64,000 nucleotides of DNA from an uncultured Alphaproteobacteria bacterium (GTDB lineage: Bacteria; Pseudomonadota; Alphaproteobacteria; Rs-D84). The position numbers were made by a program, and so were the translations under genes. Below, piece by piece: positions 115-46,782 of this stretch. Under the pieces are notes generated by a model that ran no database searches, was not told where the DNA came from, and saw only the letters and a program-made list of their open reading frames with translations. Where the stretch lies: contig CATLAX010000002.1 in the NCBI GenBank assembly GCA_949878575.1, positions 357,634 to 421,633 on the forward strand, given 5' to 3'. The stretch's first letter is position 1; the number at the start of each line of letters is the position of its first letter.

Positions 115-2508
115 TTACAACTGGGCGCGAATTTCTTCAACCTCGTAACATTCCACGCGGTCGCCTTCTTTCAAGTCGTTGTACTTGTCAAACGACATTC
201 CGAATTCAACGCCGCCGGACACTTCCTTAACCTCGTTCTTTTCACGGCGCAGTTCGCCAATTTTCCCATCGTATATAACAACGTTGTTGCGCAGCAGGCG
301 TACAAACGCGTCTTTCTTTACCGTACCCTCTGTCATGCGACAGCCGGCCACACGCGTTCCCTTGCCCACGGTGAACAACGCGATGACATCCGCATACCCG
401 ATAAAGTTTTCGCGACGTTCCGGCGCCAGTTTTCCGGACAGAATTTCCTTTATCTCGTCCGTGATGCGGTACACAACGCTGTGATAGCGGATGTCAACGC
501 CGCCGGCGCGCGCCATGTCGCGCACAGTGCTGTCGGCACGAACATTGAACGCGATAATCACCGCACCGGACGCTGTGGCCAGACGAATGTCGCCCTCTGT
601 AATCTGGCCGACACCCGCAGACAGGATTTCAACAGCGGCCTTGTCCGTGTTGATTTCACGCAGCATGTCTGTAATCGCCTCCACACTGCCCTGAACATCG
701 GCACGCAGAATAACCGGCAGGGTTAATTTCTTGTTTTCATCACGCTTTGCAAACAGTTCTTCCAGCGAAGAACGCTTTATCGCGTTGGCCTTGTCCTTTG
801 CCTTTTGAACGCGGTATGCGGCAACCTCGCGCGCCTGGGCGTCAGTTTCCATCACGCGCAGTTCGTCACCGGCGTTCGGCACGGAATCCAGACCCAAAAC
901 CACAACAGGCTGGCCCGGTTTTACAGACTTTACGCGCGCACCGGTGGAATCAACCAGACCGCGCACACGGCCGAACGTTTCACCGACGACAAACACGTCG
1001 CCTATCTTTAAAGTGCCCTGGCGGATTAAAACAGTCGCAACAGCCCCCAGGCCTTTTTCCATTTTCGCCTCTACCACGTACGCGACGGCCGGCATTTCTG
1101 CATCCGCCTTTAAATCCATCATTTCGGCCTGTAACAATATGGCGTCTTCCAGTTTGTCCAGACCTATCTTTTTCGTTGCGGAAATTTCAACGCACTGAAC
1201 GTCGCCGCCCATGTCCTCTACCTGAACCTCTTGCTGTAACAGGTCGGTCTTGACACGGGTCGGGTTCGCCTCTGGCAGGTCAATTTTGTTAATCGCAACA
1301 ATAAACGGAACCTTTGCCGCACGGATGTGATTTATAGCCTCTATGGTCTGGGGCATGATGGAATCGTTCGCGGCCACAACCAGAACAACAATGTCCGCCA
1401 TCTGGGCGCCGCGCGCGCGCATGGCCGTAAACGTTTCATGTCCCGGCGTATCCAAAAACGTTATCATTGCGCCGGATTTTGATTTAACCTCATACGCGGA
1501 AACATGCTGGGTTATGCCGCCGGCCTCGCGCGCGGCGACATTGGAATGACGAAACGCATCCAGCAACGACGTCTTGCCGTGGTCAACGTGGCCCACAACC
1601 GTCACAACCGGCGCACGCGGCGTTAAGTTTTCCGGATTGGGTTCGCGTTCCAGTATTTCCGCATACGGTTTTACATCAACGCGCTTTACCGTCGCACCGA
1701 ATTCCGCCGCAACCAGTTCCGCGGTATCGGCGTCAATAGACTGGTTCTGGGACGCCATCATGCCCATTTCCATCAACTTTTTAATAACGTTGCCGACCTT
1801 TTCCGCCATGGCCGCCGCCAAATCCTTTACGGTGATGGTATCGCCCAGGGTAACCTCATGCGAAACCTTTTGCGGGGCGGTGAACATTGCGCGCGCCTTT
1901 TCACGGAAACGCTTTAACGACGCCTCGGACCGGCGGCGGTTTGCACCGCGCAGGCCGATTTCGTCATCATCGTCGCCATCGCCGATAACAATGTCATGCA
2001 GCGATATTTTTCCACCCTTTTTAAAGTCTTTTTTATTGTGTCCGCCACGTGCGGGTCCGCGCATATCGTCGTCATCTGAGCCGCGAGAACTGCGCGGTGC
2101 GGGGGTGCTGAACGTTTTTTGCGCCGCCTTTGGCTTTTCCTGTGCGGGGGCCGCATCCTGTTCCGCGGGCGCGGCGGCAACGGGTGCCTCGCGCGCGGCC
2201 AGCTGTTCCTTGACCTGCTCATACTCGCGCGTTTCGCGTTCTATGTCCGCGGCGCGTGCGGCGGCCGCCGCGGCCTCGGCCGCGGCACGGGCGCGGCGTT
2301 CTTCCTCGCGGGCGCGGGCCGCCTCTAAAACGGCGCGCAGCTTTTCATCCGCCGCATTGCGCGGCGCCGCCGGCGCGGACGGTTCTTCGCGCAGTTCACG
2401 CGTGCCCGGCGCCACGACGCGACGACGGCGTTCAACAAAAACGGCATCGCCCTTTTTGCTTGCTACCTGGTCTATTGTTACAGACTTTCCAAGTGTTAAT
2501 GTTGCCAT
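115..2508 (-). CDS. infB: Translation initiation factor IF-2
   Basis: 797-aa ORF; GTP-binding domain motifs [25 protein letters not shown]; C-terminal IF-2 beta-barrel domains; follows nusA on same strand. Confidence 0.95.
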
Positions 2509-2567
2509 AAACTTATCCTCGCTTTGTTTTGCCGTGGCCGCGACGCACCGCGGGCGCGCATGTTTGT

Positions 2568-4106
2568 TTATTCCCCGTCCTGGGTGATGTTGTACGCAAC
2601 CTCGCGCGCTTTCATGATAACACGACCGGCCAGACGCGGCGACATCATGTCCTCGCCTAAAATTTCAACCAGTTCGTCAGACGCCAGATCCGCCAGATCA
2701 GACAAAGACTTTATCCCGTTTTCACCCAGTTTCATGATAACCGGACGCTTTATAAAGTCAAAGTTTAACAAATCATCCGTCATGCCGATTTTGTGGCCGG
2801 CATCCAGATAATCCTGCTCAATCTTGGCCAGGTACGCTTTTGCGCGCGTCTGCAGTTCCGCCGCTAATTCCGCATTAAAGCCCTCTATCGCCTCCAGCTC
2901 TGACGCGTCTACGAACGCGATTTCCTCTATCGTGCGGAAGCCTTCCGTAATTAACAGATGTGCAATCATTTCATCAACATCCAGACCACGGATAAACAGC
3001 TCAGTCTTTTCCTTAAATTCTTTGGCGCGGCGTTCCTGTTCCGCCTGTTCGTTCATCACGTCAATGTTCCATCCGGTCAACTGTGACGCCAGACGCACGT
3101 TCTGGCCGCGGCGACCGATGGCCAGCGACTGCTGGTCTTCCGTTACCACAACGGCGGCCGTGCGTGTGTCCTCGTCAACGATAATCTTTGCGACCTTTGC
3201 CGGCTGCATGGCGTTTACGATAAACACCGCCGGATCGTCGGAATACAAAATAACGTCAATCTTTTCGCCGTGGCATTCGTTAATAACAGGCTGAATACGC
3301 GTACCCTTGATGCCAACCGTCATACCGACCGCGTCAATGGACGGATCCTGGGTTTCAACGGCAATTTTTGCATGGCTGCCCGGGGCGCGTGACACGGACT
3401 TGATTTTTATAACCCCCTCGTAAATTTCCGGAACCTCCTGAACAAACAGCTTTTCCATAAACATGGGATGCGTGCGGGTTAAGAAAATCTGGGGGCCGGA
3501 ATTGCTGCGCGCAACATCCATTATCAGCGCACGAACGCGGTCGCCCACCGCCAGGCGTTCGCCCGGTATCAATTCCGAGCCTTTTATATAACCCTCGGCC
3601 TTGCCGTTGATGTCAACAAAAACATTTCCGAATTCAATGCGTTTCACAACGCCGGAAACGATGTCGCCGATGTTGTCCTTGAACTCTTCATACTGGCGGC
3701 CTTTTTCGGCATCACGCACGCGCGCGGTCATAATCTGCTTTGCCGTCTGGAACGCCATGCGGCCGAATTCCGGTTCCGGCAGCGGATCTTCCACCACGTC
3801 GCCAACCTGGGGATTCTTGGCGTATTTTTTAGCCTGATCCACCGTCAGCATCGTGCCGGCATCATAATCTTCGCCCGCCGCCTGGGGCGATGCAATAACT
3901 TCAAACAAACGCTTTACATGAATGGCGCCGTTTTTACGGTCAATGTTTGCCACGATGTTAAATTCCTCGCCATACTTGTGCTTTGCGATTTTGGCAATCG
4001 CCGCCTCCAGCGATTCTATTACAATTTCGCGGTCAATCAGCTTTTCCTGAGCCAAAGAGTCAATGGCCAACAGCAAATCCTGGCGCGGCATTGAAACAAA
4101 AGACAT
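2568..4106 (-). CDS. nusA: Transcription termination/antitermination factor NusA
   Basis: 512-aa ORF with NusA N-terminal domain, S1 and KH domains (…AQEKLIDREIVIESLEAAIAKIAKHKYG…) and acidic C-terminal repeats; directly upstream of infB. Confidence 0.95.
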   Translation of the reverse strand: MSFVSMPRQDLLLAIDSLAQEKLIDREIVIESLEAAIAKIAKHKYGEEFNIVANIDRKNGAIHVKRLFEVIASPQAAGEDYDAGTMLTVDQAKKYAKNPQVGDVVEDPLPEPEFGRMAFQTAKQIMTARVRDAEKGRQYEEFKDNIGDIVSGVVKRIEFGNVFVDINGKAEGYIKGSELIPGERLAVGDRVRALIMDVARSNSGPQIFLTRTHPMFMEKLFVQEVPEIYEGVIKIKSVSRAPGSHAKIAVETQDPSIDAVGMTVGIKGTRIQPVINECHGEKIDVILYSDDPAVFIVNAMQPAKVAKIIVDEDTRTAAVVVTEDQQSLAIGRRGQNVRLASQLTGWNIDVMNEQAEQERRAKEFKEKTELFIRGLDVDEMIAHLLITEGFRTIEEIAFVDASELEAIEGFNAELAAELQTRAKAYLAKIEQDYLDAGHKIGMTDDLLNFDFIKRPVIMKLGENGIKSLSDLADLASDELVEILGEDMMSPRLAGRVIMKAREVAYNITQDGE

Positions 4107-9700: not shown

Positions 9701-9733
9701 AAAAAAATCCCCCGTTTGGGGGATTTTTTATTT
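9701..9733. terminator. Bidirectional rho-independent terminator (AAAAAAATCCCCCGTTTGGGGGATTTTTTATT)
   Basis: Perfect 8-bp GC stem with A-run upstream and T-run downstream; lies between convergent ORF 9312-9596 (+) and the HTH gene (-). Confidence 0.6.
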
Positions 9734-9952
9734 CCAGTACCGTAACAATTCCGGCGCCCACATCTGGATAACGCGGTATACCTGATACGGGGTCGGCGCA
9801 ATGCGCCCCTTTTCCATTTCATAGTACGCAATGCCGTGCACACCTATCTGGCGTCCGGCATGAAACGGGCTTAGTTTTGACCGGCGGCGGATTTTGTGCA
9901 TCCACAGCCCCAGGCTTTTATAAAATTCTTGTTCCGATTGTAATTTTTTCAT
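9728..9952 (-). CDS. Small XRE/Cro-type helix-turn-helix DNA-binding protein, copy 1 of a duplicated module
   Basis: 74-aa protein MKKLQSEQEFYKSLGLWMHKIRRRSKLSPFHAGRQIGVHGIAYYEMEKGRIAPTPYQ… with HTH_XRE-like signature (…Q..G…I..YE.G…P). The first ATG-GAG-GA of the tool ORF is better read as the GGAGGA RBS for the second ATG. An identical protein is encoded at 45239-45463. Confidence 0.7.
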   Translation of the reverse strand: MKKLQSEQEFYKSLGLWMHKIRRRSKLSPFHAGRQIGVHGIAYYEMEKGRIAPTPYQVYRVIQMWAPELLRYWK

Positions 9953-10169
9953 TTTTTCCTCCATGGTTTTTAGTTAATAAAAACACCGCCGTGATGAAAG
10001 GCGGTTGGAGGTTGATTACTACGAAAACGATAGTGCTGCTTATTCATATATATCACAGCCCTCCAACCAATTATGGAGTTAAAAAATGTTTTCAGAGGTA
10101 ATCACACCTCACACCGGTAATCGTCCGATGCGATAAAAACTATATCAAAATAAAATTAATATATGCAAA

Positions 10170-10200
10170 TAAAATCCCCCGTTTGGGGGGATTTTTATTA
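10170..10200. terminator. Hairpin terminator nearly identical to the one at 9701-9733 (AAAATCCCCCGTTTGGGGGGATTTTTATTA); terminates the large cysteine-rich gene
   Basis: Same GC stem/loop sequence as 9707-9724, A/T-run flanks; immediately after stop of ORF 10198-13686 (-). Confidence 0.55.
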
Positions 10201-13200
10201 GTCGGTCAGGGCCGTATCAATCAAATCGCCGTATTGCCCGACCATTTCGTTGCCGACCATACAGTTTAGATGGTTACCGACATCGGCCATAAAGGCGTCA
10301 TAGGCTTCTTTTTCAACCTTGTCCAGTTTGGCATCCTGGACGCTTTTGGTCGCCTGGTACGTCAGTATTCCACCAGCGGTGGCTGTAACCGCGCCACCAA
10401 CCAGATTTGTTATAGAACGGTTTCTGGCCGCTTTCTTTTTAGCGTCTTCATCGGGCTCCGCACTCAAACACGCCGCATGCAGTTTTTGCATAGCCGCATT
10501 AGCTGCCTTTTGCGCATCTTCAACAGCCTTTGACTTGGTGTTATAAGTTTTGTTCATCTCCGCCAAATTATCGTTATACGCTTTTACACTATCAGCATCA
10601 CTTTCGCATATCGAATATGTATACTGTACATCTGTCACATCCGAACGATCACAATCATCTGTTAAAGATATAGGTGTTCCTCTATGGTTCTTACAATTTT
10701 CAGGTTCGCCTTTTTTAAATTTAGCTCCACACGCAAACATACATGTTGTTTCTATCAGTGTAACTGTTTTGCCCGGATTTATAGCTTTTATTGTTGCTAT
10801 TCTGCGCGGATCTTGCAACGAAGTACAATTATCTGTTACGGTTTTTTCCTTGTCGGTTACAGCCGCCGGCATATCAGAAACAGCATTTTGATAGGCTATA
10901 TGTTTGTCGGTCACCTCACTGATAAGATCGGACATTTCCTCCTTTGCATCCCCTTTATTTTTGGAATACAGGTCTTTCAATTCACGGGCAGCTTTTACTG
11001 CACGAGTCATATAGGCGGATCTGTCTTCTGCCTTTGTTGATGTCATATAATTTGATGCGGCTGTTGTACATCTATTTACAATGTCACCGGCATCTTTAAT
11101 AGATGTGCTACCGTTTGTCCCCAGCAAACCGCCCAAGAAACCGCTGTTCTGCATTTTGTCCGTGGCAAAGCCACCCAGAACGCCGCTGCCAACCACGCCA
11201 GCCAGTGTCGTCCATGCTCTGGTGCGGCTGTTACCGCGGGCCGCATCACTGCGCGCGTCATCCGCAACCGAATTCGCCAGTTTTTCCAGCGCATCACCCG
11301 GTATCCATGAACCGCATGTAAACGCATCACCCGCCGCAAAGTATGCCGTTGACCAGTCAGAGCCCTTTGCTATAACGTCTTGGATCCGTTTGTCATCGGA
11401 CTGCAGCGTTACACGCACACGGCAGAACGATCCGTATATATCATTGCTGGCCGCGAACTGGTTCGGTTTCAGACCGGATACCGCATAACCCTTTGGCACC
11501 GTGTTTGATTTCAGCTTTACCCACAGGAACGTGCTGCCCAAATCATTTTTGCCCAGGATGCCGCCGTTGTTTGACGACATGCACTTGTTCTGTTCGCGTG
11601 TTAATTTCGCGTTGTACTTTGCCTGAGCCTCTTTTTCCAAATCATAAATCAGGTCTTTGAACAACGTGGACGCCGCCTGGGTTTCAACATACGTTGTGTA
11701 TGAAATCATCACAGGCTGGTCATAAATATTGCCCGCGGCATCAACCGTATAGCACACGCCCTGATCCGTGCCACCCTTTGACGTGCACAGCGCGTTGCCG
11801 TTTTCATCCACTGCCGCAACCTGTTCCGTGTTGGCGGTGATTGCCGTCGCGGCGCCGGCGTCAATCCAGCCTTCGCGTACGTTGCCGGCCCCGCCCCAGC
11901 TGGATGCGGACGAATTGTTCGCAATTTTCAACTTGTTGCGTTCAATGGCCAAATGTTCTTCGCATACTGACGCGGATTTTACCGTATCCAGGCACAGGCC
12001 AAGAACGATTGTGTAATCCAAAACGCCGCCCACCTTGTTCATGGATTTGTCAAAAGACGCCTCGCCGGTGTTGGTCAATGAAGAATACACATCCGTACGG
12101 TTACGATAGCAGTTCTGGTAATCCGCACCGCACATTGATTTTACGCAAGATGTCGCAACCGCCTGGCACTGGCGCTTCATCGTGGCGATGGCCGCGTCGC
12201 TGTAACTGCTGGCCAGGGTGGCGTTCAATGACGCAATCACGCCGATTGGGTCGTTGCCGCCTTCCTCATACTCAGGGAACAGCGTCGTAAACGCATCGTT
12301 GTTTATATATGTATAAGAATAGCTGCCCGTCTTGTTCGGGTTCGCCGCCGCATACTTGCAGTATGCGTCCGTGTTTACGACCGCCTCGCACCCGGTTTTC
12401 AATTCCGCGTACGTGGCGCTGTTGTTAATGGATTTGTCCTTGTTGCCGAACACCTGGCTGTAACAGGCCGCGCCGGAACCGGAACCGCAGATGCGCATTA
12501 CGCATGTCTTTATCGTGTCCGTGCATTTTTCCTTTGCCTTGGTGTCAAACTTGTCAACCAAATCGGCGATTTTTGCACGCATACCGGCATTCATGCGGGC
12601 GGCGTACGCCTCGTCGTAAATTTCTTCCTGATTATCCTCATCCTTTAACTGGGACGATGTCGGCATCTGGCCGTTGCCCAGAAACGTCGCATAGCAATAT
12701 TTGTTTGAACCGATTGTATCCATACAGGAATTCTTGATATATCCCGCGATGCTGGATTTGGATATAATATCCGTTCCAGCCAGCGACACCGGCAGGGCCG
12801 CAGTGCTTTCCGCCGTTGCGACGCCCTGATTAATTGACTCTACCAGGCTAACCGTCGTGGTTGTGCTGTTTTCATAGCATTTGTACGGATTTGTCGCACA
12901 CGCGTTCAAGATACACTGGTCAACAACCTTGTAACATGTTGAAACGGCGTTAACCGCGGCCAGCGCCGCGCCCTCTGCAATCATTTCGCCGATGCGCGAC
13001 GTGGCGGACGGCGTTGTGGACGTGTTCGCGGAACCGAACAGCTCAATCAATCCCTCTGACTGGCAGCGGGCCAGTGTGGAATCACAAAACACGCGCTGCT
13101 TTCTAAATTCCTTGTCCGTGGTACATAATTCAAAATCATTCCCGCAGACACTGTCCTTCTTTAAACATGCGGTATAGCGTTTTACACATGTGGACGTGTC

Positions 13201-13686
13201 GTATTTGTTGGATATGGCCGCACCGATAATTAACTGGCCCAGAACACTGCCGTCGGTCGGGTATGTGTAATCCGTAACCTCGCCATAACTGTTTTTAGAC
13301 GCAACCGTGGACAGCGCCGTGACAGTTCCCGTTCCAAACAGGCTGGATACTCCGGCGGTGCTGCACTGGGCCAGCGTGGACAAACACTGCGGCATTTTGC
13401 CGTGGAACAAAACCTTGGTCGTGCATTCTTCAAAGTCAGAGCCGCATGCGTCCCCACCCTTCATACAATTCGTGTACGCGTCAATGCACTCTGCATTCGC
13501 CAACAGGTTTGACGTCGTTGTCGTGGTGCCGCTGGTACTGGTGCCGGCGCCGGTAATGTATGACGTCATTGTCGGCATGCGCGACGACGCGGTGCCAATA
13601 ACACTGGGCCGCGCGGTCAGTGCATAAGATGCCTGAACCGTTGTCAAAACAGCCAGAAAACCAAACGATTTTGTAAAGAGACTCAT
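10198..13686 (-). CDS. Large (1162 aa) secreted cysteine-rich repeat protein, function unknown (candidate surface/adhesin or effector protein)
   Basis: N-terminal signal peptide (MSLFTKSFGFLAVLTTVQASYA), S/T-rich stretch, then two clear ~60-aa six-Cys repeats (C-x4-T-x-C-x6-C-x3-FE-x-CTT…C-x-STLA-x-C…LFG) and further paired-Cys modules; C-terminal Gly/Ala-rich hydrophobic segment. Confidence 0.7.
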   Translation of the reverse strand: MSLFTKSFGFLAVLTTVQASYALTARPSVIGTASSRMPTMTSYITGAGTSTSGTTTTTSNLLANAECIDAYTNCMKGGDACGSDFEECTTKVLFHGKMPQCLSTLAQCSTAGVSSLFGTGTVTALSTVASKNSYGEVTDYTYPTDGSVLGQLIIGAAISNKYDTSTCVKRYTACLKKDSVCGNDFELCTTDKEFRKQRVFCDSTLARCQSEGLIELFGSANTSTTPSATSRIGEMIAEGAALAAVNAVSTCYKVVDQCILNACATNPYKCYENSTTTTVSLVESINQGVATAESTAALPVSLAGTDIISKSSIAGYIKNSCMDTIGSNKYCYATFLGNGQMPTSSQLKDEDNQEEIYDEAYAARMNAGMRAKIADLVDKFDTKAKEKCTDTIKTCVMRICGSGSGAACYSQVFGNKDKSINNSATYAELKTGCEAVVNTDAYCKYAAANPNKTGSYSYTYINNDAFTTLFPEYEEGGNDPIGVIASLNATLASSYSDAAIATMKRQCQAVATSCVKSMCGADYQNCYRNRTDVYSSLTNTGEASFDKSMNKVGGVLDYTIVLGLCLDTVKSASVCEEHLAIERNKLKIANNSSASSWGGAGNVREGWIDAGAATAITANTEQVAAVDENGNALCTSKGGTDQGVCYTVDAAGNIYDQPVMISYTTYVETQAASTLFKDLIYDLEKEAQAKYNAKLTREQNKCMSSNNGGILGKNDLGSTFLWVKLKSNTVPKGYAVSGLKPNQFAASNDIYGSFCRVRVTLQSDDKRIQDVIAKGSDWSTAYFAAGDAFTCGSWIPGDALEKLANSVADDARSDAARGNSRTRAWTTLAGVVGSGVLGGFATDKMQNSGFLGGLLGTNGSTSIKDAGDIVNRCTTAASNYMTSTKAEDRSAYMTRAVKAARELKDLYSKNKGDAKEEMSDLISEVTDKHIAYQNAVSDMPAAVTDKEKTVTDNCTSLQDPRRIATIKAINPGKTVTLIETTCMFACGAKFKKGEPENCKNHRGTPISLTDDCDRSDVTDVQYTYSICESDADSVKAYNDNLAEMNKTYNTKSKAVEDAQKAANAAMQKLHAACLSAEPDEDAKKKAARNRSITNLVGGAVTATAGGILTYQATKSVQDAKLDKVEKEAYDAFMADVGNHLNCMVGNEMVGQYGDLIDTALTD

Positions 13687-45220: not shown

Positions 45221-45250
45221 CCCCGAACGGGGGATTTTTTATTTCCAGTA
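45221..45250. terminator. Bidirectional terminator (AAAAAAATCCCCCGAACGGGGGATTTTTTATT); a loop variant of the 9701-9733 hairpin
   Basis: Same stem as copy 1 with a different loop; lies between infC (+) and HTH copy 2 (-). Confidence 0.6.
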
Positions 45251-45463
45251 CCGTAACAATTCCGGCGCCCACATCTGGATAACGCGGTATACCTGATACG
45301 GGGTCGGTGCAATACGCCCTTTTTCCATTTCATAATACGCAATGCCGTGCACACCTATCTGGCGTCCGGCATGAAACGGGCTTAGTTTTGACCGGCGGCG
45401 GATTTTGTGCATCCACAGCCCCAGGCTTTTATAAAATTCTTGTTCCGATTGTAATTTTTTCAT
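45239..45463 (-). CDS. Small XRE-type HTH protein, copy 2 (identical protein to 9728-9952)
   Basis: Identical 78/74-aa translation; nt identity about 97-98% including about 200 bp of 5' leader. Confidence 0.7.
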   Translation of the reverse strand: MKKLQSEQEFYKSLGLWMHKIRRRSKLSPFHAGRQIGVHGIAYYEMEKGRIAPTPYQVYRVIQMWAPELLRYWK

Positions 45464-45689
45464 TTTTTCCTCCATGTTTTTTTAACTAAAAACACCGCCG
45501 TGATTAAAGGCGGTTGGAGGTTGATTACTACAAGATAATAGTGCTGTTTATTTATGTATATCACAGCCCTCCAACCGGTTGTGGAGTTTTTATATCTTGG
45601 AGGTAATCACACCTCACACCGGTAATCGTCCGGTGCGATGCGAATTATACCGGATTATTTTCGTGTTTGCAAATAATTACTGGATTGCC

Positions 45690-45790
45690 ACGGTCGCTAT
45701 GCTCCCTCGCAATGACAGTCGTACCGGAAATCATTGTCATTGCGAACGCAAGTGAAGCAATCCAGTAAAAAACGCCCCGGGCTGGGATTT
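45690..45790. repeat. Second copy of the nested palindromic element (outer IR ACTGGATTGC…GCAATCCAGT, inner IR CGCAATGACA…TGTCATTGCG) plus GC hairpin
   Basis: Inverted repeats read directly; homologous to 1-110; immediately downstream (minus strand) of the radical-SAM gene stop. Confidence 0.55.
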
Positions 45791-46782
45791 TATCGCTCGT
45801 TAAAACGCCATCCCTGTAACAGACGGGCGCGCGTTTCTTCGCGCCACGTGGCCTTTACCAAATCCACACGGGTATACAGCAACGACTTTGGTCCGTGTGC
45901 GGTATGCCATTTTGTTGAAATCTTGCGTCCTGAATTTTCGCCCAGCGTTACCCGCCCCGCACTGTCAAACGCAATCAAAGACATACCGTCGGCGGATAAA
46001 AACTGAAACTGTGGAAAATCAGAATGATGCGCCCATTCCATGCCACGCGCACGGCCGCCGTCAAGCAACGTTCCTTTTGAATAGTGCAATAAAATCTGGT
46101 CATCGACGATTGGCAACGAACGCATATTTGCCAAATCACCGACCAAAACTTCGTCTATAGTGTGACCACTTGAGCGTAACTGTTCCAATAATGCCGGAAA
46201 CATATCAACATGATTGTTAAAACCGGAAATATGAATAACAACGTTGGTATTTGGCATTTTGGCCAGGCGCGATATCACCGCGGCATTATTTTCTAATGCA
46301 TTTTTATGATACCTGTCCAGCGACAGCGAAATCTGCAATGAATACGGTTTGTGTGACGATATTACATGATGCAAATCCTGCAATATACTCTCGCCAAATC
46401 CGGCACGCACCCACGCGGCGTTGGTCTTTATATCGGTACCAATGCCCAAATCAAGACTGTGGTTCAATAATGTCGGCACATAATCGGCCGGTCCAAAGCG
46501 GTATGCCGACATAATTTCCCCGCCTGTAAACACAACATTATTTGAAAATGACTGGTCGGAATGCGCCTGGTCCAAATAAGAGCATATGGTACGGGCCGGA
46601 ATAAATGTCCGAGGATTCTTCGGCCCCGAACATTCACAGCAATGAGGGCACCGGTACCAACAATAATTTGTTGTTTTAAACACCAATACATACTTCGTAT
46701 GACGCAGTATGTTCCCCATGGGGAAATGCCGGTCGCGCCAGTTTAGGTATTTATAAATAATGCTCACAGGTATAAAATTCAT
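45790..46782 (-). CDS. Radical SAM domain protein, function unknown (lower GC than neighbours)
   Basis: CxxxCxxC motif NYCWYRCPHC and glycine-rich VVFTGGEI motif; 330 aa; AT-rich codon usage by eye. Confidence 0.7.
   Translation of the reverse strand: MNFIPVSIIYKYLNWRDRHFPMGNILRHTKYVLVFKTTNYCWYRCPHCCECSGPKNPRTFIPARTICSYLDQAHSDQSFSNNVVFTGGEIMSAYRFGPADYVPTLLNHSLDLGIGTDIKTNAAWVRAGFGESILQDLHHVISSHKPYSLQISLSLDRYHKNALENNAAVISRLAKMPNTNVVIHISGFNNHVDMFPALLEQLRSSGHTIDEVLVGDLANMRSLPIVDDQILLHYSKGTLLDGGRARGMEWAHHSDFPQFQFLSADGMSLIAFDSAGRVTLGENSGRKISTKWHTAHGPKSLLYTRVDLVKATWREETRARLLQGWRFNER

Follow-up and report, generated by a model that had tools for sequence, protein, structure and literature searches.

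We describe a structured leader RNA of about 155 nt that lies upstream of a small Xre-type helix-turn-helix (HTH) gene in a 64,000-nt stretch of DNA from an uncultured alphaproteobacterium (GenBank assembly GCA_949878575.1, contig CATLAX010000002.1, forward-strand positions 357,634 to 421,633), hereafter called the window and numbered from its first letter. The leader is present twice in the window and belongs to a family with about 33 distinct members from metagenome and "viral" contigs. It has a covarying fold that ends in a terminator-like hairpin shortly before the Shine-Dalgarno sequence (SD) of the next gene. The covariation strongly supports this fold, including a long-range helix, a three-way junction and the terminator-like hairpin. 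Judged from sequence and predicted folding, the leader is probably a cis-acting bistable attenuator that masks the SD as well.

Both copies lie on the minus strand, as do all of their parts described below. The core of copy 1, from the first hairpin (P1) to the U-run, spans 9977..10131 and that of copy 2 spans 45486..45636. The two fold more stably than shuffled controls, with z values of -5.5 and -5.4, respectively, and a covariance model of the family scores them at 149.5 bits (E 1.8e-40) and 152.4 bits. The original prediction had drawn attention to a long-range inverted repeat with a spacing of about 47 nt, a CCGCC/GGCGG hairpin, a T-run and a ribosome binding site, and all of these lie on this strand where it put them. 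The repeat is perfect over 9 nt (100% complementary), with arms GGUUGGAGG at 10060-10068 and CCUCCAACC at 10003-10011 (DNA spelling GGTTGGAGG and CCTCCAACC), and the spacing measures 48 nt. As a gapped 18-base pattern it occurs twice in the window and not at all in 100 shuffles. Copy 2, at 45.2-45.7 kb, likewise retains both the repeat and the hairpin (45512-45576), as had been claimed, with GGUUGGAGG at 45568-45576 and CCUCCAACC at 45512-45520; its terminator hairpin occupies 45494-45514 and its U-run 45488-45492. The hairpins flagged earlier are the 3' part of the element; the 5' two-thirds of the RNA and the predicted masking of the SD by CCUCCAACC had been missed.

Each leader is part of a repeated unit of about 480 bp that extends from a promoter-like site through the terminator behind the open reading frame (ORF). 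The promoter-like site of copy 1 (10139..10168), as read from the sequence, consists of a -35 element TTGCAT (10163-10168), an 18-nt spacer and a -10 element TATAGT (10139-10144), with a predicted start near G10131. The leader RNA begins at this predicted transcription start of a near-consensus promoter. The corresponding site of copy 2 (45644..45672), read in the same way, is TTGCAA (45667-45672), a 17-nt spacer and TATAAT (45644-45649). A consensus scan of the window did not list the copy 1 site. The copy 1 SD, UGGAGGA (9957-9963), is located 15 nt past the U-run and is followed by the ATG start codon (9950-9952) of a 74-aa Xre-type HTH ORF (9728..9952), and a bidirectional terminator (9708..9723) closes the cassette. 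In copy 2 (45239..45474) the SD at 45468-45474 and the start codon at 45461-45463 precede an identical 74-aa HTH ORF. The two ORFs encode the same protein, with 4 synonymous and 0 non-synonymous differences, and the leaders differ more between the copies than the ORFs do. These leader changes had been ascribed to loops. The terminator loop does differ (TTTCATCAC (DNA) in copy 1, TTTAATCAC in copy 2), but so does a stem unseen earlier, P3, which reads GAAAAC/GUUUUC in copy 1 and AAGAUA/UAUCUU in copy 2, with every change compensated.

Relatives of the window HTH protein are few, forming four clusters, or ten after a profile search, and their loci bear the same leader with visible compensatory changes. 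A metagenome scan with a DNA pattern based on the conserved 3' portion of the leader returned 28 stretches, of which 27 are real; the other, L026, was discarded as a chance match within a GC-rich coding region. Further members came from the loci of HTH homologues and from viral contigs. Among the viral contigs 16 of 20 pattern matches had arisen by chance, and L069 and L070 were rejected since their match is limited to a loop fragment. The diverged members comprise four viral-collection contigs and a second site in each of L016 and L031. A covariance model made from four members found exactly the two copies in the window and recovered all other members as well. The 27 real stretches are arranged alike, with a near-consensus promoter about 7 nt before GCAUCGG, the RNA, the hairpin with its U-run, a strong SD and a small ORF. 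Sites of the TTGCAA-N16/17-TATAAT type stand at equal upstream distance in nearly all members. Several copies are found per contig or sample, at least six of them in the Ga0137307 sample, and many short contigs break off inside the leader, as expected because the leader is a repeat. The element thus accounts for assembly breaks, and the covariance model is ready for use in annotation.

The leader RNA is far better conserved than the proteins encoded downstream, with a mean column identity of 68% versus 28%. Several members derive from human gut metagenomes. The motifs of a 16S fragment on a member contig read, by our own inference, as alphaproteobacterial; the 5' end of a 16S rRNA gene (L016, 9054-9451) is on the same contig as two leader copies.

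To describe the covariation-supported structure, which we call fold A, we used a test alignment (A6) of 29 sequences, 28 of them distinct. On this alignment 96.7% of cells pair and 29 of the 42 pairs vary on both sides. The covariation score of fold A is 0.458 versus 0.157 for shuffles, none of 500 of which reaches it, and about 0.05 when the partners are slid. Folding and homologue comparison, which had been put forward as a check, thus gave both conservation and covariation.

Fold A starts with the 5' hairpin P1, CAUCGG-ACGAUUA-CCGGUG (10112..10130), six of whose seven pairs vary on both sides. This is followed by the local hairpin P2, GAGGU...ACCUC (10095..10110), which pairs in 94% of cells and shows compensatory changes in members L022 and L031b. 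The long-range helix P2L joins UGAUUAC (10098-10104), that is, the P2 loop and two bases of the P2 3' arm, to GUAAUCA (10013..10019); six pairs vary on both sides and 99.7% of helix 2 cells pair. The outer two pairs of P2 are compatible with P2L while the inner pairs compete with it, and the two helices may form an H-type pseudoknot. An extension of P2L by GAGG:CCUC (22-25 with 119-122) was rejected, as it is always pairable, never compensated and broken in L031b, and the local P2 explains these bases better. In P3, formed by GAAAAC (10088..10093) and GUUUUC (10023..10028), all eight pairs covary, and the 3' strand is flanked by invariant ACUAU and (G/A)UAGU segments.

The three-way junction is completed by P4 and P5. 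P4 pairs CUCCA (10074..10078), the first anti-SD-like sequence of the leader, with UGGAG inside 10060-10068; it shows one compensatory change (L022) and is lengthened to 8-9 bp in diverged members. P5, GCUGU...GCAGC (10035..10059), has five pairs, all of which covary, and a conserved A/U-rich loop of 15 nt with the consensus GAUAUAnnnnAAUAA. Optional hairpins are found in one junction (L015, L013a, L016b, L052 and L053) and inside the P5 loop (L053), and they leave the core undisturbed. The loop and junction bases are highly conserved, including those that are unpaired. There is also an invariant 4-bp core between UGAU of the P1 loop and AUCA of the terminator loop, with a compensatory change in L039 and L022. 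The covariation of this loop-loop contact does not rise above shuffles and L031b and L053 lack it, so that we offer it as a tentative idea. The pairings of fold A include 47 G.U cells, and the covariance model matches the reverse strand with 11-16 bits versus about 150 bits for the sense strand. The structure is therefore that of an RNA of the gene's strand. The earlier suggestion of an attenuator or riboswitch-like RNA holds up with regard to its homologues (about 33), its strong covariation, its terminator-like hairpin and a nearly isoenergetic competing helix, but the fold that covaries differs from the flagged one, is larger and holds GGUUGGAGG in a local hairpin with CUCCA.

The terminator-like hairpin of copy 1 (9979..10005) consists of ACCGCC (10000-10005), the 9-nt loop UUUCAUCAC and GGCGGU (9985-9990), with the U-run at 9979-9983, and its predicted energy is -10.2 kcal/mol. 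Being a G+C-rich stem-loop followed by a U-run, it is a putative intrinsic (Rho-independent) terminator. In 28 of 29 distinct members the hairpin is terminator-like, having a stem of 5-6 bp, an energy of -8 to -10 kcal/mol and at least five U in the next 8 nt. The stem covaries; in L031b, L016b, L039 and L009 its sequence is altered and its structure kept. Because of its 9-nt loop the hairpin was missed by the consensus terminator scan, which allows loops of 3-8 nt. The loops of diverged members range from 4 to 12 nt.

A second helix competes with both P4 and this hairpin. The segment GGUUGGAGG has two partners, CUCCA(AC) upstream, with which it forms P4, and CCUCCAACC downstream, with which it forms the helix P6. 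It therefore provides the 3' strand of P4 and the 5' arm of P6 and is a putative antiterminator and anti-anti-SD sequence. Its partner CCUCCAACC provides the 3' arm of P6, places its last 3 nt in the terminator stem and is complementary to the SD over its first 6 nt. The overlap between repeat arm and terminator noted earlier is real, but it amounts to only 2-3 nt (ACC), so that P6 removes three of the six terminator pairs. All nine pairs of P6 are possible in every sequence of the 28-sequence alignment, and the helix can be paired by eye in five diverged members. Of the 28 distinct A6 sequences, 26 show no change in either arm. In L031b, GGCUGGAGG stands opposite CCUCCAGCC, a true compensatory change from U-A to C-G; L022 carries a G.U-compatible change for which the P4 partner is compensated, and the diverged L016b has a G.U pair.

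We compared the two pairings by RNAfold on transcripts that end at the U-run. For copy 1, copy 2 and L016 the best fold is the one supported by covariation, and forcing P6 costs 0.8-3.5 kcal/mol over it in these three leaders. The P6 state, which we call fold B, also forms P2 and Palt, a hairpin made of the invariant ACUAU:AUAGU beside the P3 3' strand. Palt is pairable in 96% of cells, with two C-G compensations, and its covariation is not above shuffles. Fold B is thus made wholly of invariant segments, as would be expected if these bases serve two pairings.

The leader also bears on the SD. The gap between the U-run and the SD is only 15-30 nt across members, too short to accommodate a second promoter. 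The best structure in 29 of 30 read-through folds is the three-way junction with CCUCC(A) paired to the SD, and the minimum free energy structure of 26 of the 30 contains a hairpin between the U-run and an A-run, GUUUUUA-UUAAC-UAAAAAC (9966..9984). Given this pairing of CCUCCA with the SD, P6 would remove the terminator and free the SD in one step.

These data suggest the following mechanism, in which we infer the switching, its direction and its trigger from the pairings. The leader would be transcribed from its own near-consensus sigma-70-type promoter and act in cis on the next gene, adopting one of two nearly isoenergetic folds. In fold A, P1 would be followed by a compact domain in which P2L, probably knotted with the short P2, closes P3 and the three-way junction with P4 and P5. 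As CCUCCAACC would then not be held by GGUUGGAGG, the CCGCC/GGCGG hairpin and its U-run could form and transcription would stop. On transcripts that read through, CCUCCA would pair with the SD, aided by the U-run/A-run hairpin, and translation would be blocked too. In fold B, GAGGU:ACCUC (P2), ACUAU:AUAGU (Palt) and GGUUGGAGG:CCUCCAACC (P6) would form; half of the terminator stem would be lost, the SD released and the gene expressed. The choice between the folds would presumably be set during transcription by a factor that stabilizes the fold A domain or fails to do so, candidates for which are a small molecule, a protein or another RNA.

Several points weigh against this mechanism. Termination may be weak or absent in some members, as the U-run begins 3 nt past the stem in about five of them and is missing altogether from L057. 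Support for the antiterminator helix is thin, consisting of near-invariant sequence and a single compensatory event. In RNAfold the freed CUCCA can pair with the SD in fold B, and the "on" state may therefore not be fully open. Moreover, P6 crosses P3 and P2L only as secondary structure, and a pseudoknot might hold both. Fold A was derived by eye and then given to the model to which the alignment was fitted, a procedure that favours the model; the compensatory changes are nonetheless plain in the raw, unaligned sequences. Finally, one copy of a tandem pair, L013a, has no ORF, and the genes regulated by the leader (small regulators, an ABC exporter and a secreted protein) share no metabolic theme.

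Most members precede small Xre-type HTH genes, the products of which share 13-32% identity with the window HTH protein outside its own subfamily. Fourteen of 21 leader-associated proteins match HTH_31 (E up to 0.01); the window protein scores 15.5 bits against this family, below the cutoff of 27. The profile of the HTH family matches HipB, C proteins, ImmR-like and other Cro/C1 structures and is generic in this respect. Diverged leaders also precede non-HTH genes, namely a complete ABC exporter (L057), a secreted protein (L052 and L058) and, in L053, an unknown protein near a phage terminase gene. A genome-collection scan with the window HTH protein returned solely an unrelated actinobacterial HTH protein, and no link of the HTH proteins to defence systems was found. 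Among 78 flanking proteins at the metagenome and homologue loci, which match 87 different Pfam families, mostly housekeeping, we found no link to a neighbouring gene or mobile element. At two loci (L024, 710-862, and L031, 5688-5840) the leader is intact and the HTH ORF that follows retains just 18 codons (MKSIDGPMARIGVKYTAK), apparently as a pseudogene of the 91-92-aa paralogue found in L020 and L025. In L052 (9956-11828) and L057 (6257-8349) an opposite-strand EcoRI-type adenine methyltransferase and a PLD-family nuclease-like protein are encoded before the leader-controlled gene.

The riboswitch expression platforms of Bacillus, such as those of the purine and SAM-I riboswitches, make use of competing terminator and antiterminator helices. 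The leader resembles them in having a covarying 5' domain followed by a terminator-like hairpin whose 5' arm is shared with an alternative helix, in the closeness of its two folds in energy and in the construction of the alternative helices from invariant bases. Unlike these platforms, it mostly controls small transcription factors instead of metabolic or transport genes, and the segment that enters the terminator stem masks the SD as well. One tentative possibility, which we hold with limited confidence, is that the pseudoknotted three-way-junction domain represents a new riboswitch class that binds a metabolite or second messenger in an uncultured gut-associated, probably alphaproteobacterial lineage and gates the transcription and translation of paralogous Xre-type regulators, an exporter and surface- or phage-linked genes. 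If so, many transcription factors would relay a single chemical signal. A single RNA sensor placed before a family of regulators would be an unusual layout, controlling transcription factors and not enzymes or transporters. The uncultured bacteria that carry the element come mostly from gut samples, and its trigger could show what signal they monitor.

A covariance search against Rfam, also suggested with the original prediction, gave no family. None of the 4227 models of Rfam 15, including those for T-box leaders, ROSE and fourU thermometers, c4 and riboswitches, matched either copy or ten member loci at the gathering score, and at E values up to 10 only chance snoRNA-type matches of 16-17 bits overlap the leader. 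We also found no description of this leader motif in the searchable literature. The leader is probably a cis-regulatory RNA of the kind with competing terminator and antiterminator helices, and the family, which falls within none of those tested, is apparently undescribed. Well-supported structured leader RNAs outside Rfam are uncommon, and the covariation is unusually clear for a motif found in a single window. Two further features are unusual: the leader stands before many paralogous regulators, and in the proposed mechanism a single segment acts as both terminator arm and anti-SD sequence. In a survey of candidate RNAs from the human microbiome, HTH_XRE was the commonest domain encoded directly downstream, being found with 15 candidates, which are unnamed and were not individually characterized (Fremin & Bhatt 2021, PMC8040213). 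The invariant 9-mers of the leader are absent from the stored supplements of that paper, and no HMP2 candidate listed there could be tied to the motif.

The main alternative is that the terminated RNA of about 150 nt is itself the functional product, a multi-copy family of trans-acting small RNAs (sRNAs) whose downstream genes are transcribed only by incidental read-through. The A/U-rich P5 loop or the CCUCC segment might perhaps act on other mRNAs or bind a protein. Every copy comes with a near-consensus promoter and a terminator-like hairpin of its own, the loop and junction bases are highly conserved, and genomes carry multiple copies, at least six in Ga0137307 and a tandem pair in L013. 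In this pair (2303-2672, minus strand) the leaders are about 200 nt apart; the first, L013a, has its terminator but lacks an ORF, and an HTH ORF and a separate promoter belong to the second. Alphaproteobacterial sRNAs of the CcsR or "cuckoo" type are short, lie downstream of a gene for a small protein and carry their CCUCC motifs in hairpin loops. The leader shares with them several copies per genome, conserved CCUCC segments and terminators of its own, but its CCUCC sequences are helix strands of a 155-nt RNA that lies upstream of a gene. Moreover, all but one of the distinct copies examined have a strong SD and an ORF within 15-30 nt and no promoter between, and the ORFs are under purifying selection, as seen from the substitutions between the two window copies (4 synonymous, 0 non-synonymous). 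The U-run/A-run hairpin and the CCUCCA:SD junction are also conserved and would be meaningful only in a read-through mRNA. We consider a purely trans-acting role unlikely, although the two functions are compatible and the RNA could do both.

Less probable still is control of the attenuator by a protein. This could be the HTH protein, acting on the mRNA that encodes it, or an RNA-binding protein shared among the leaders and comparable to PyrR, TRAP or the ANTAR type. The controlled genes are mostly regulators, which are often autoregulated, and the conserved unpaired bases could make up a protein site; the HTH profile also weakly resembles MBF1/EDF1, an Xre-type HTH protein that binds ribosomal RNA. 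The identity of 13-32% between the window HTH protein and those outside its subfamily, while the conserved RNA bases barely change, makes binding by the gene's own product unlikely, as do the members that precede non-HTH genes. The matches to solved structures are of the generic Cro/C1 kind. For a shared protein, no linked gene for an RNA-binding protein was seen, the neighbours of the cassettes being unrelated housekeeping genes. The competition between terminator and antiterminator is common to the leader and to PyrR, TRAP, ANTAR, L10 and L20 leaders. In contrast to these, the leader shows no binding-site repeats, and its fold is built around a junction, probably with a pseudoknot, where theirs is a simple site of two hairpins.

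It is very improbable that the inverted repeats are DNA operator half-sites for the HTH protein, as had also been proposed, or that the unit is a dispersed repeat or MITE without function. Perfect 9-nt inverted arms do lie beside an HTH gene, and the unit is repeated and breaks short-read assemblies. However, the arms lie past the predicted start with 48 bp between them, the stems covary with pairing kept by the rules of RNA (the 47 G.U cells would be C.A mismatches on the other strand), the model matches are strand-specific, the same arms accompany unrelated HTH proteins, an ABC exporter and other genes, and the unit has a constant orientation to promoter and gene with no terminal repeats or target duplications seen. 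A leader-peptide attenuator was rejected, as there is no conserved start codon or frame (at the candidate position an in-frame ATG is found only in copy 1, other members having ATA, CTA or TTG there) and the variable region changes by compensation and not by codon.

Several observations concern the surroundings of the two cassettes. Directly upstream of copy 1 a 1162-aa cysteine-rich protein is encoded (10198-13686, minus strand), which has a signal-peptide-like N-terminus and no Pfam match; L008 contains a large ORF at the equivalent position. The gene upstream of copy 2 (45790-46782, minus strand) encodes a 330-aa protein with a weak radical-SAM match of 17.9 bits, below the cutoff of 29.5. 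A REP- or MITE-like palindrome (ctggattgc...gcaatgaca...tgtcattgcgagg...ggcaatccag) at about 45680-45765 on the minus strand abuts the -35 region of copy 2, and the same palindromic element is found beside homologous cassettes of other organisms (L008, 2440-2590, and L009, 340-385). L003 and two similar contigs join the upstream genes of copy 2 (ABC/MacB and the 330-aa radical-SAM-like protein) to the downstream genes of copy 1 (a 94/110-aa ORF, RlmN, SurA and LptD). These contigs thereby skip about 35.5 kb between the direct-repeat cassettes (window 10200-45200), including infC, a uracil-DNA glycosylase gene, pal and mreB; the repeats have either recombined or been collapsed during assembly. 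Near-identical bidirectional terminators, AAAAAUCCCCC-loop-GGGGGAUUUUUU, at 10175-10191, 9708-9723 and about 45222-45238 end the gene of the 1162-aa protein and both HTH cassettes, and each HTH cassette is followed by a convergent gene.

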